36,544 nucleotides of DNA from a virus (taxonomy: Duplodnaviria > Caudoviricetes): the IMG/VR virus record IMGVR_UViG_3300042997_000106, positions 1 to 36,544 of that record; one strand, 5' to 3'. This document shows, in pieces, positions 21,273 to 28,839 of this stretch. Each line of letters begins with the position of its first letter. Position 1 is the stretch's first letter. The position numbers and the translations under genes are program-made. The notes beneath the pieces are model-generated. The model did not search any database. It was not told the DNA's origin and was given only the letters and a program-made list of their open reading frames with translations.

Positions 21273-21296
21273 ATTGTTTTGTTTTAAATTGTTTAG

Positions 21297-21346
21297 CAAA
21301 TATAATAATTATTTTTTACTTATTAACATATTAACAAATAATTAAC
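21297..21346 (-). promoter_or_regulatory. Host-type promoter (-7 TATATTTG) with GTTAA-N6-GTTAA box at 21331-21346
   Basis: Consensus -7 box directly downstream of a terminator. Confidence 0.7.
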
Positions 21347-21374
21347 AAAAAAAAAGGTAAGCGTTAACTTACCT
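21347..21374 (-). terminator. Intrinsic terminator
   Basis: AGGTAAGT-loop-GCTTACCT + T tract. Confidence 0.8.
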
Positions 21375-24124: not shown

Positions 24125-24778
24125 TTAAAATAATTTAGTTTGGTTAGTGTGGTTTATTATTCTTTGTATTGCTTTATCGTAATACTCTTTATCCAATTCA
24201 CAAGCTGTTAAATTAAATCTGTAATCGTGACAAGCTATTGCTATACTTCCACTTCCTAAATGTGTGTCGAGTATTTTGTCGTTTTCTTTTGCATATTTAT
24301 CTAATATCCATTTGTAAAGTTCAAAAGGTTTGGCAGTTGGATGGAATTTCTCTATTGCTGTATTATTTGATTTTATACAACTTGCTCTACTAAATTCAAA
24401 TATTCTCATAGCTTTATTAAAAGAAGTCCAAGCCATTTCACCATCTGCTAAAGAAAAATCTCTTTGTCCTTTATCCCAAATTATCCAACCCATTGATGGT
24501 TGTAAATGTTCAGTCATATAATTACCTCCCCATATAATTTGATTTTTAGAAACTCGTTTAAGTTCTTTAAAATATTCTGCAGTTGGTATACAACTATCCC
24601 AGTCACTGTCTTTATATTTTTTATAACCAAATTGTTCGCCTCCATTATTTTGAGCTTTGTCTGCTCCAATCCCATAAGGTGGGTCTACAATAGCTAAATC
24701 AAAATAGTTATCAGGATAACGTTTCATCAATTCCATATTATCCTCATTAGTAATTTTTATTTTATCTGTTACTTTCAT
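24125..24778 (-). CDS. DNA N6-adenine/N4-cytosine methyltransferase, beta class, paralog 1
   Basis: Motif IV DPPY precedes motif I DTHLGSGS; HPT.KP; ELD..YY. Confidence 0.92.
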   Translation of the reverse strand: MKVTDKIKITNEDNMELMKRYPDNYFDLAIVDPPYGIGADKAQNNGGEQFGYKKYKDSDWDSCIPTAEYFKELKRVSKNQIIWGGNYMTEHLQPSMGWIIWDKGQRDFSLADGEMAWTSFNKAMRIFEFSRASCIKSNNTAIEKFHPTAKPFELYKWILDKYAKENDKILDTHLGSGSIAIACHDYRFNLTACELDKEYYDKAIQRIINHTNQTKLF

Positions 24779-25952: not shown

Positions 25953-26636
25953 TTAAAATAACTTTTGTTGTGATACGTGGTTTTTAATTCTTTGTATTGC
26001 TTTGTCGTAGTATTCTTTGTCAAGTTCACAAGCAGTTAGTTCAAATCCGTAATCGTGACAAGCTATTGCTATTGAACCTGAGCCTAAATGTGTATCAAGT
26101 ATTTTATCGTTTTCTTTGGCGTAAGTTTTAAGCAACCAAGAATATAACTGTACAGGTTTTTGAGTTGGATGTGTTTTCTTTTCTTTTTGTGGATTATTTA
26201 AATATCCAAACCCTATCCAATCATAAGTAAATCTTCTTAATACACAATCAAAAGAAGTCCAAGCAAGTTCTCCATCTGAAAAATTAGGGTTGTTTGCATT
26301 TGTAATTTTTTTATCCCAAAATATCCATCCCTTTTTTGGTTTTAATAAATCTGCAAAATAATTACCACCCCAAATAATTTGATTTTTTGAAACTCTTTGA
26401 AGTTCAATAAAATACTCATCATTTGGTCTTTCATTATCCCATCCTTTTTTTTCGTGGTTTTGTTTCATTGCAAATCCTTTTTTCTTTCCACTTTTTGCTA
26501 ATACGGTTGTATTTCCATCAAAACCAATTCCATAAGGCGGGTCTACAATAGCTAAATCAAAATAGTTATCAGGGTAACGTGCCATTAAAAGCATATTATC
26601 CTCGTTCGTTATTGTTATCTTATCTGTTATTTCCAT
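25953..26636 (-). CDS. DNA N6-adenine/N4-cytosine methyltransferase, beta class, paralog 2
   Basis: DPPY, WGGNYF, HPTQKP, DTHLGSGS. Confidence 0.92.
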   Translation of the reverse strand: MEITDKITITNEDNMLLMARYPDNYFDLAIVDPPYGIGFDGNTTVLAKSGKKKGFAMKQNHEKKGWDNERPNDEYFIELQRVSKNQIIWGGNYFADLLKPKKGWIFWDKKITNANNPNFSDGELAWTSFDCVLRRFTYDWIGFGYLNNPQKEKKTHPTQKPVQLYSWLLKTYAKENDKILDTHLGSGSIAIACHDYGFELTACELDKEYYDKAIQRIKNHVSQQKLF

Positions 26637-26649
26637 AATTGTTTAATTT

Positions 26650-26675
26650 AAAAAAGGGTAGCTTTTACACTACCC
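26650..26675 (-). terminator. Intrinsic terminator after ssb
   Basis: GGGTAGT-loop-GCTACCC + T6. Confidence 0.85.
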
Positions 26676-26682
26676 AATTAAT

Positions 26683-26982
26683 TTAGAATGGTAAACTATC
26701 ATCTACCAAAGCAGCTTGTTGAGGTTGTCCTTCTTTTTTAACTGCTTTAATGTTTCCATCAGTCCAAACTACGTTTCCGTTACCTAAATAGTTTTTAGAC
26801 TTTTTAGCATCACGTTCTTCTTTAGTTTGTGAATCTGTTAAAGATACGTTTTGACCCCGTTGGTTTGCATCATCGTAAATGTTTAACGTACAGTTATAGT
26901 AAACTGCTCCGTCTTTACCCATTACAAACTTCTCTTTTGGTAACTTGTCAACTCTAATACTTAAATTGATAATTGCACTCAT
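26683..26982 (-). CDS. ssb: Single-stranded DNA-binding protein
   Basis: 99 aa, YLGNG motif, acidic C-terminal tip DDSLPF; downstream of erf. Confidence 0.75.
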   Translation of the reverse strand: MSAIINLSIRVDKLPKEKFVMGKDGAVYYNCTLNIYDDANQRGQNVSLTDSQTKEERDAKKSKNYLGNGNVVWTDGNIKAVKKEGQPQQAALVDDSLPF

Positions 26983-27038
26983 AATATTTAATTTTACTTT
27001 GCCTACCTTTTTTTACTGTTGTCGGCTATTCAGTTTTT

Positions 27039-27109
27039 ATTTAACTTTGTATAAACGCAATAAAAGTTATTTATTTTAAATCATTACTGCGTCTATACGA
27101 TAGTTAAAT
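27039..27109 (+). mobile_element. attC-like recombination hairpin 1 (71 bp)
   Basis: ATTTAAC (RYYYAAC) ... GTTAAAT (GTTRRRY); arms TAACTTTGTATAAACGCAATAA / TTACTGCGTCTATACGATAGTTA. Confidence 0.7.
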
Positions 27110-27436
27110 GCAAGTTATCCCAAAATCACGTTTAAGAATCTTAATACAATTTTCTTTATTTAGCGATGGAATATAAATGCAATTATCTTTTTTAATTACT
27201 TTTTTGTTTTTCTTTTTGAAATTACCTCTAATAGCATCGTTCCAATGAATTTCTTTTATTTCAGGTTCAAAAACTGCTAATTCAATAGTTCTTTTCTTTA
27301 AATCAAATTCAAATAAAATATGATTTTCGTGTGGTGTAATTCTTGAATCAAAAACTTTTTGAATTTCTGCTTGTTGCTGTTTTGTAATTTCAATTTTATC
27401 TTTTACTTTGTCTTTTTCAAAATCTGATAGTTTCAT
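27104..27436 (-). CDS. Hypothetical protein (110 aa) carried in the attC-bounded cassette
   Basis: Its stop codon lies in the GTTA box of hairpin 1 and its start is 11 nt from hairpin 2. Confidence 0.75.
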   Translation of the reverse strand: MKLSDFEKDKVKDKIEITKQQQAEIQKVFDSRITPHENHILFEFDLKKRTIELAVFEPEIKEIHWNDAIRGNFKKKNKKVIKKDNCIYIPSLNKENCIKILKRDFGITCI

Positions 27437-27447
27437 ATTTAACCTGC

Positions 27448-27580
27448 ATTTAACATCGGTTTTGCTCTATTGCGGTTTCGGGCTTAACTGAATGTTCGGT
27501 TTGTATTTGTTAATTTAGTTTTTAATTCAAAGTTTTTGGCTTACTTTTCCGCAACAAAGCAAAGCCGAGAAACGTTATTC
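27448..27580 (+). mobile_element. attC-like recombination hairpin 2 (133 bp)
   Basis: ATTTAAC-ATCGGTTTTGCTCTATTGCGG ... CCGCAACAAAGCAAAGCCGA-GAAAC-GTTATTC; long imperfect inverted repeat with a 4-nt bulge. Confidence 0.75.
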
Positions 27581-27796
27581 ACAAACTACAACCCAGTAAT
27601 AAGTAGTATTTTGATATGTTCCTGTTTCGGTAATTTCACCACAAGCGGTATTTTGATTTGTTTGCCTTGTGTTTGAAGTTCGTTCACCGTTTACTATTTG
27701 CCTTTCGTATTTAACTTCATTAGTTTGCTCATCATTTGAACAAGCCATTATTCCGATAGCTAATGTAAATAAAAGTAGTTTTTTCATTTTTTTCAT
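27575..27796 (-). CDS. Lipoprotein (73 aa, possibly truncated)
   Basis: MKK + hydrophobic + IMAC lipobox; its stop overlaps the GTT box of hairpin 2. Confidence 0.65.
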   Translation of the reverse strand: MKKMKKLLLFTLAIGIMACSNDEQTNEVKYERQIVNGERTSNTRQTNQNTACGEITETGTYQNTTYYWVVVCE

Positions 27797-27924: not shown

Positions 27925-28524
27925 TTATTTTACTTTTAAAAGTTCTTGTTTAGTTTTAGCAGCTAACTTATATTTTTTTTCTATAACATCAATACTTCCA
28001 CCGCTTTTTAAATACTCAATAGCTTTTGTAAATTCAGGTGTATTTACGTTTAACCATTTTTGCTCAACTGCTGTTGCTTCTTTAATAGAAACAAACTTAT
28101 CCTTTCCGTGTGTATTAGTTGCATCAGGGTCTTGCGTGTCATCAATTAATAGTAAGTTACCCAATGCGTATTTTTTACCATAAGAAGATGCTGAACCAAA
28201 TGCTTGAGGTGTTTGCATACCTTTTTGTTGTAAGTCTACTCCTACTATTGCAGTAGCACTTATTTCATTGATTCCGTTATTATCATAAATAGTTGCAGTT
28301 GATTTTAACATAGGTGGTAAATTACTTTCAAATGATTCAACTCCAATAAGAGTTTCGTTAATAGTAAAAGATACACCATATTTTTCGTTGTATGGTTTTA
28401 ACGCTTCTAATATATCTTCTGCTGAACGGAAGTTATATTTTCCAAAAGAGTTGAACTTTGATTTGTTAGCTTTAAATTCTACTTGAATTTTGCTTAATTT
28501 TTCGTGTAATGATAATTCTTTCAT
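27925..28524 (-). CDS. erf: ERF-family ssDNA annealing protein
   Basis: FGKYNFRSAEDILEALKP and GSASSYGKKYAL..L..IDD..DPD signature. Confidence 0.9.
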   Translation of the reverse strand: MKELSLHEKLSKIQVEFKANKSKFNSFGKYNFRSAEDILEALKPYNEKYGVSFTINETLIGVESFESNLPPMLKSTATIYDNNGINEISATAIVGVDLQQKGMQTPQAFGSASSYGKKYALGNLLLIDDTQDPDATNTHGKDKFVSIKEATAVEQKWLNVNTPEFTKAIEYLKSGGSIDVIEKKYKLAAKTKQELLKVK

Positions 28525-28691: not shown

Positions 28692-28714
28692 TGTTATTGT
28701 TTTTAATTATGTAG

Positions 28715-28775
28715 CAAATATATAGTGAATTTTTTAATTAGCAAGTGTATTTTTATTTTTTAACAAATATTTAAC
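28715..28775 (-). promoter_or_regulatory. Host-type promoter (TTG-N19-TATATTTG) with GTTAA-N6-GTTAA box at 28760-28775
   Basis: Consensus -33/-7 elements; downstream of a terminator. Confidence 0.75.
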
Positions 28776-28783
28776 TTTTAGCC

Positions 28784-28810
28784 AAAAAAAGGGTAGCCGT
28801 TAAACTACCC
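28784..28810 (-). terminator. Intrinsic terminator
   Basis: GGGTAGT-loop-GCTACCC + T7. Confidence 0.85.
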
Positions 28811-28839
28811 AATTAAAACAATAAAAACAATTAGAAATA

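Follow-up and report, generated by a model that had tools for sequence, protein, structure and literature searches.

An integron-like gene cassette on an attI-like dock in a phage without a recombinase, likely moved in trans by a short Xer/IntI-like tyrosine recombinase

How does a phage that encodes no integrase come to carry what looks like a single integron gene cassette? The question is raised by a 36.5-kb viral record with a completeness rating of 100%, analysed here over its full 36,544 nucleotides (the window), in which two imperfect hairpins bracket one small open reading frame (ORF). The public runs in which the window is best represented are lake-water metagenomes, one of which, run X1, may be its source, and the host presumably belongs to the Bacteroidota. 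Among 30 ORFs scanned in the window, genes for a portal, a terminase, an exonuclease, methyltransferases, Erf and NinG were recognised. As the original prediction had held, no tyrosine recombinase (PF00589) was detected in this complete record, and the same search of its two closest relatives gave none. The answer that we consider likely, and for which the evidence is set out below, is that the window carries an integron-like cassette on an attI-like dock, moved in trans by a short Xer/IntI-like tyrosine recombinase.

The element lies in an interval flanked upstream by erf (27925-28524), which encodes an Erf-like ssDNA annealing protein (PHROG 155, E 1e-37), and downstream by an ssb-like gene (26683-26982; PHROG 24909, of unknown function), with all genes on the minus strand. 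The ssb label is assumed from the original prediction together with an acidic tail. Transcription of erf, the cassette gene and ssb would start from a promoter-like site on the minus strand (TTG-19 nt-TAnnTTTG, 28715-28744), which we take to represent the Bacteroidota promoter consensus. The promoter proposed at 28715 fits that consensus, but the pattern is not enriched, with 9 occurrences window-wide against 8.65 by chance. Terminator-like sites retrieved by a pattern scan (28810-28791 and 26675-26656, minus strand) bracket the erf-cassette-ssb unit. A terminator-like repeat is common to 21342-21372, 26643-26681 and 28778-28816, the last two being 91% alike, and a second promoter-like repeat (21279-21322) resembles 28697-28740. 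The leader of the ssb-like gene (26985-27035, minus strand; L144-L222) is strongly conserved and holds a short stem; a paired change (GCCGAC/GTAGGC versus GCTGAC/GTAAGC) suggests a pseudoknot, for which there is no Rfam match. Such a leader recalls the autoregulatory leaders of phage ssb genes.

Within this interval, the coordinates and letters of the element as originally predicted were confirmed: two hairpins of 71 and 133 bp, an ORF of 110 aa, end complementarity of 14/15 and a unit of 471 bp. The short inverted repeat (27039-27109, plus strand, 71 bp) directly adjoins the ssb leader and has its crossover at 27103|27104. The long one (27448-27580, plus strand, 133 bp), retrieved by an inverted-repeat search, contains an attC-like hairpin (27451-27577, plus strand) that was delimited by an alignment of its family (A2) and by covariation, and that reads TAAC, stem, long loop, stem, 4-nt bulge and C|GTT, with the crossover at 27574|27575. 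The two G|TT points are 471 bp apart and enclose the cassette (27104-27574, plus strand), a body with complementary ends followed by its own hairpin. The body begins with a 15-bp end repeat (27103-27117, plus strand), which shares bases with the ORF's stop codon, and ends with an R''-like segment (27440-27454, plus strand) matching the start at 14/15 positions and conserved in the viral contigs L002 and L003. At 27574 the outer end is GTTATTC, an imperfect form of GTTRRRY. The cargo ORF (27104-27436, minus strand; PHROG 15043, a phage protein of unknown function) has its ATG just past the long hairpin and runs antisense to the polarity of the sites, which is given hereafter as P, the polarity of the window plus strand.

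Folded as DNA, the short hairpin reached -11.0 kcal/mol on the plus and -11.9 kcal/mol on the minus strand (z -3.7 and -3.8), and none of 200 shuffled sequences folded as well. The long hairpin reached -14.1 and -15.7 kcal/mol (z -1.1 and -1.9), values matched by 32/200 plus-strand and 9/200 minus-strand shuffles; these modest scores follow from its long open loop, and the basal stem is clear. The better minus-strand fold that had been predicted is therefore found in both hairpins when both strands are folded, by the small margins of 0.9 kcal/mol (short) and 1.6 kcal/mol (long). Extra bases on the right arm had also been claimed for both; the long hairpin has 4 and the short one only 1. A BLAST search with the element retrieved two records, both from a single Cellulophaga phage and matching over 48 bases, and one chance plasmid match (E 0.4). 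Rfam gave nothing meaningful on the window at E<=5 and just a tRNA on five arrays, and the idea that the hairpins are Flavo-1 RNAs was dropped, as Rfam lent it no support.

That 27104-27574 is a single mobile cassette, made of the ORF, the complementary ends and the long hairpin, is established by its copies. Seven were found, with bodies 86-100% identical, and they break at the limits and G|TT crossover points that had been predicted. Their P-left neighbours are seven different sequences (two docks and five hairpins), each joined at |GTTAAATGC, and their right neighbours are six different sequences joined at C|GTT. The cassette start is present in 7/7 copies, which for the 4 metagenome copies is a consequence of the search pattern chosen. 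The viral contigs L002 and L003 encode the cargo at 95% and 93% amino-acid identity, four further copies come from metagenome contigs (L373-L376), all in arrays of antisense ORFs, and one of the seven copies sits in the array of a 362-kb phage, G002. The cassette is missing from the relative L175 and from a contig of run X3. In L004-L006 the ORF occurs at 51-70% identity, with no family hairpin flanking it. The P-right hairpin accompanies the ORF, yet it exists in three alleles, that of the window, that of L002 and L373 (93% alike) and that of L003 and L374-L376 (95-100%); these alleles are only 56-71% alike, as against 86-100% for the bodies.

The cargo itself has 78 homologues, none informatively named. 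Its structure model is of low confidence (pLDDT 61), the fold matches at E<=0.001 are unnamed or uncharacterised viral proteins only, and an Atlas search gave no match. A scan of bacterial genomes for the ORF yielded 319 pattern candidates, 0 of them confirmed. As a separate observation, phage cassette ORFs (L003, L373-L376) are often open through the head hairpin or start inside it, giving recurring N-terminal peptides.

The long hairpin belongs to a large family. A pattern for one subtype retrieved about 1700 stretches from the bacterial collection, nearly all of them Bacteroidota among the 80 matches listed, and about 310 viral stretches hold the family by pattern search. Alignment A2 comprises 72 copies with TAACA ... 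CGTT ends and a covarying stem (6/78 candidate seeds were dropped or left unused as likely reverse-polarity or spurious). In seeds that were partly chosen for pairing, the stem is paired in 88% of cells, against 62% when shuffled and 31-39% when slid, and structure is kept over sequence, 19/23 pairs having changed on both sides. The scanner found 0 sites on shuffled loci. A right-arm bulge of 3-4 nt lies beside the GTT (4 nt in 67/86 strict matches), and the left arm is paired without inserts. T stands at +7 after AAC in 599/607 hairpins and A at -11 in 570/607, the latter being partly built into the scanner used. In the window, the covariance model matches only the long hairpin, which is itself in the seed; the short hairpin gives no match at E<=1. 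The minus strand folds better in 234/324 viral and 174/283 bacterial hairpins, with a mean gain of -1.35 and -0.83 kcal/mol, respectively, compared with -1.6 in the window.

Across cassettes, the ends beyond the GTT are complementary at 6/7 positions or more in 143/189 viral and 117/141 bacterial cases, whereas shuffled pairs reach this in about 4.5%. The predicted polarity, with the ORF inverted relative to the sites, is borne out as a rule of the phages: the ORF is antisense in 153/155 viral cassettes and sense in 96/106 bacterial ones. For both counts, bodies under 100 or over 2500 bp were left out, and for orientation also 35 bacterial and 34 viral bodies without a dominant ORF; the cassette, pair, folding and array-head counts exclude L001 (a copy of the window), L003, L142, L143 and L370 (overlaps) and exact duplicates. 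Two bacterial records, L037 and L050, hold phage-type antisense arrays (0/7 and 0/1 sense) and are perhaps prophages or mis-binned phage contigs.

The hairpin belongs to its own P-left body, so that the unit is an ORF plus its downstream hairpin, with exceptions. Where two viral cassettes share a left body (at least 0.89 identical), 13 of 21 pairs keep the hairpin (at least 0.85) and 8 of 21 do not, a change that a plain integron model does not predict and that counts against the cassette reading; the non-keepers include all three pairs among the window, L002 and L003. In 32/32 viral pairs with only the right-hand body in common, hairpin identity is 0.34-0.71, the random mean being 0.52. The model matches, this pair comparison and the joints of the seven copies rule out an arrangement in which both hairpins belong to one family and neither moves with the ORF.

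These observations bear on whether the hairpins might instead be independent repeats, or RNA signals such as terminators and processing sites, lying at gene borders while the ORFs move by repeat recombination. Such an origin would suit an ORF with three different head hairpins, and the stems would form in RNA also, covariation being blind to the difference between DNA and RNA. It would leave unexplained, however, that the body ends are complementary and pair only after circularisation, that the hairpin tracks one particular flank, that arrays begin beside a recombinase, and that phages and bacteria transcribe opposite strands although site polarity stays the same. The window scan found no terminator pattern at either hairpin, which speaks against the idea that they act only as RNA termination signals, and Rfam matches are absent as well. 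We hold this explanation to be very improbable.

The sampled phage and bacterial cassettes shared no flank (259 bacterial and 304 viral sites). Together with the failure of the bacterial scan to return the ORF, this makes the phage cassette pool look separate from the bacterial one in this sample, and the gene acquisition that had been predicted was not borne out as an uptake from bacteria.

The short hairpin plays a different part. Judged by comparison with its relatives, it is an attI-like dock, that is, a fixed site that would take cassettes at G|TT, since the same element is empty in some relatives and loaded with differing cassettes in others. Of the 79 loci fetched with the ssb-like gene as query, 74 reach erf, and their erf-ssb interval is empty (49-81 bp) in 39, holds other genes with no dock in view in 28 and carries the dock in 7, in each case as a short element just before the ssb leader. 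The dock pattern occurs in 17 viral stretches representing 16 loci, and the 16 aligned docks are conserved up to the GTT and variable beyond it. L175 has the dock without a cassette, the first of the two docks of L147 is likewise empty, and docks loaded with other cassettes were found in L147, L196, L201, L210, L217, L222, L225 and L227. Gene gain and loss at G|TT in relatives, as originally predicted, is thus seen. A 73-aa ORF (27575-27796, minus strand), whose stop codon abuts the long hairpin, precedes the empty dock in L175 and L147 and is context rather than cassette. A second cassette spanning this ORF was considered and rejected, as no family hairpin lies upstream and the ORF accompanies the empty dock too.

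The end of the dock resembles bacterial array-head sites, for example in L042. A stands at -8 from the GTT in 77/84 array-head sites (candidates with C at -1 having been removed as probable missed hairpins), against a background of 33%, and the window dock has this A. The dock of the window is an inverted repeat (z -3.7) with 96% pairing, in which only 1/18 pairs covaries, and the dock of L002 has no such left arm. As minor observations, a dock arm (L002 2864-2934, 4331-4352) resembles the arm of one hairpin subtype minus the bulge, which suggests that docks may derive from hairpins, and a 14-base piece of the left arm of the window dock (27049-27062) also occurs inside the recombinase gene of G002 (L370, about 2057-2070), where it forms the codons for INAI and could be chance in AT-rich DNA. 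The erf-ssb interval of L144-L222 is also a general insertion hot spot, with a tRNA-like sequence among the inserts in L158 and L168.

The exact empty and circle junctions that had been forecast were not seen: contigs of 4 runs, which drop rare forms, contained neither a circle joint nor an exact excision joint. Clean excision from the window would yield an empty site 5 nt shorter than the allele of L175, which recurs, with 17 further differences, in a run X3 contig. Owing to these 5 bases that allele is taken as belonging to a relative and not as a proven precursor of the window, and direct insertion in the window lineage is accordingly possible rather than proven. The same discrepancy would fit a window that is only a passive carrier of a real system, in which dock and cassette arrived together from another phage, through homologous or Erf-driven short-homology recombination, and no site-specific enzyme acts now. 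The missing recombinase in the window and its two closest relatives, the Erf-like annealing protein encoded next door, the duplicated dock of L147 with a cassette lacking its matching end, and the entry of many unrelated genes into this slot without a dock (28/74 relatives, a figure that also counts against the preferred reading) would all agree with such passive receipt. Against it, the 16 aligned docks have different cassettes joined exactly at G|TT, which points to repeated site-specific entry in relatives that have no recombinase, and both sites of the window are intact. Passive carriage is accordingly regarded as unlikely, and the preferred reading remains a dock at which a site-specific enzyme acts in trans.

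A candidate for this enzyme is linked to the hairpin family elsewhere. In a motif screen, a tyrosine recombinase was present in 9/78 bacterial loci, and in 7 of those 9 the recombinase adjoins a cassette start to which the first hairpin is complementary; the expectation that similar hairpins occur in recombinase-linked bacterial arrays was thus upheld. The covariance model found family hairpins in 54/61 genomes from the genus to which G010 belongs (record title Flavobacterium sp.). The recombinase was present in 39/61, all 39 with hairpins; the 7 genomes without hairpins also had no recombinase (Fisher p 4e-4, the genomes not being independent), and 15/61 have hairpins with no recombinase match, which counts against the linkage. 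Among the matches listed, enzyme and hairpin lie no more than about 11 kb apart on the same contig in 13 genomes, with the enzyme P-upstream every time. A phage has such an enzyme too: in G002, this very cassette is part of an array with 15 model matches in one orientation, headed by an intact recombinase that has all six catalytic residues (R133, K158, H218, R221, H244, Y253), faces away from the array and starts just beyond the first G|TT. It is 34-41% identical to the bacterial enzymes and aligns with them without an insertion. Among curated phage records, 23 match the recombinase, all under 60% identity. The original prediction of an enzyme supplied in trans by the host can thus be kept in part: the window, having no recombinase, needs one from outside, but a host is not required as its source, for G002 has its own.

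All eight bacterial array-linked enzymes scanned fall under the cut-off of TIGR02249, the IntI model (175-232 versus 265 bits). Their best stretches end near model position 181 or begin at 236, and this split around positions 181-236 suggests that they have no IntI-specific insertion. The XerA/XerCD models (NF040815, TIGR02224, TIGR02225) were the best or second-best family for the 8 enzymes, and the NF040815 cut-off was passed by 4/8. The array enzymes share the conserved catalytic R-K-H-R-H-Y set of these families; unlike XerC and XerD, they fall below both of the respective cut-offs and are located at the heads of cassette arrays.

Phage CALINs have been described by Qi and others, including that of the Polaribacter phage P12002L, in which two sites were taken as divergent attC (Qi et al., 2023; PMC9892861). 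P12002L, a lytic Bacteroidota phage, resembles the window in that its small genes are surrounded by attC-like sites and no integrase is encoded (PMC9892861). P12002L_attC1 is a weak match to the present hairpin family (scanner 22.2; E 0.012 with the model), probably as one of its short members, and P12002L_attC2, of which that genome has two copies, takes the dock position of a methyltransferase cassette. In the available parts of that report there is no hairpin family, dock, inverted-ORF rule or linked recombinase (PMC9892861). In P12002L (L372, NC_028924), 9 scanner matches and 8 model matches at E<=0.1 were found here, nearly all of one polarity, as against the two sites given in those parts.

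The original prediction had taken both hairpins for integron attC sites, and divergent but true attC/attI sites served by a classical IntI would make the locus an ordinary CALIN or an integrase-less integron in a phage. The AAC/GTT ends, the T at +7 after AAC (599/607) and the minus-strand folding bias would agree with this, and IntI1 recombines 5/6 phage sites, including P12002L_attC2 at a dock-type position (PMC9892861). The sixth, P12002L_attC1, is the one family-like site tested, a short and weak member (E 0.012), and it was not recombined by IntI1/attI1 (PMC9892861). This failure, the scores of 8/8 scanned enzymes below the TIGR02249 cut-off and a bulge that lies on the R' arm and not near L'' as in integron anatomy (PMC5027507) make a classical IntI system very unlikely. 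The claim of attC identity is not supported in its classical form: the hairpins depart from classical attC, and the enzymes linked to them score under the IntI cut-off.

The same holds for the supposed CALIN of two attC sites, for which the threshold is at least two attC without an integrase (IntegronFinder 2.0; bioRxiv 10.1101/2022.02.28.482270): only one attC-like site is present, the short hairpin being an attI-like dock. The system does resemble classical integrons in having a recombinase, a dock and cassettes with their own downstream hairpin (PMC5027507), as well as a G|TT crossover, complementary ends and one strand that folds better. It differs from them in the 3-4-nt bulge beside the R' box, where classical sites have extrahelical bases near L'' (PMC5027507), and in lacking the small central spacer of the classical site. 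It differs also in its antisense phage ORFs (153/155), in hairpins that are sometimes exchanged, and in linked enzymes that score under the IntI cut-off and seem to have no insertion. What the window carries works like an integron cassette on attI and is neither a classical integron nor a CALIN, given its attC geometry, ORF orientation, single attC-like site and non-IntI enzyme. A search of the openly searchable literature gave no account of this hairpin family, the nearest report being that of Qi et al. (PMC9892861).

How the cassette would move can be proposed along these lines. The enzyme would come in trans from the Bacteroidota host or from a co-infecting large phage. The long hairpin would be recombined as folded single-stranded DNA, its minus strand folding and being cut in the AAC at R', as integron chemistry suggests (PMC5027507) and as the folding bias of the family fits. 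The looped-out bulge of 3-4 nt would bring the hairpin A from -11, where it partners the T at +7, towards -8, the dock-like position, which would speak for a folded donor and probably a double-stranded dock. Cassettes would be transferred in circular form and enter through the dock; the inverted ORF would then point the same way as the erf-ssb transcript, and the early promoter of the phage would read it. In classical sites, loss of extrahelical bases favours recombination of the top strand at R'' (PMC5027507), and if strands crossed over there, the exchange of hairpins would be accounted for. As a weaker part of the proposal, an occasional crossover at the AAC side of the hairpin may swap hairpins between cassettes and so have given this ORF its three alleles.

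A wider and decidedly tentative suggestion is that Bacteroidota phages run a cassette economy of their own, in which phage genes become fitted with hairpins, giant phages keep arrays and small phages tap the pool. Hairpin fitting might be helped by crossover at either hairpin end; giant phages would use their own insertion-less enzyme, and small phages a portable dock with an enzyme from co-infection or the host. If this were true, the present ORF, which has no hairpin in three phage loci and three hairpins in seven places, would trace the birth of a cassette.

The contribution of the window lies in one dock seen both empty and loaded, one cassette followed in seven contexts, among them a giant phage that bears the recombinase, and one ORF with three hairpin alleles. 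Its meaning extends to the bacterial side. Bacteroidota are counted as nearly integron-free; the available part of the IntegronFinder 2.0 census gives one complete integron in Bacteroidetes proper, in Salinibacter ruber M1 (bioRxiv 10.1101/2022.02.28.482270), compared with the hairpin family in 54/61 and the recombinase in 39/61 genomes of one genus sample here. With sites in most genomes of that genus and the enzyme in two thirds, a large gene-shuffling system seems to have been missed by standard tools. If an insertion-less enzyme recombines folded single-stranded sites, this would bear on the origin of integrons from Xer recombinases, and a separate pool of inverted phage cassettes would be a precise route for exchanging accessory genes between unrelated phages. 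The window, with one dock, one cassette and a matching enzyme in G002, also offers a minimal test kit and a handle on cassette origin. As a last observation on gene content, two related DNA methyltransferase genes of the window (24125-24778 and 25953-26636) are 74-83% alike in stretches; they have no flanking hairpins there, and genes like them stand after family hairpins in L002 and within such cassettes in P12002L.
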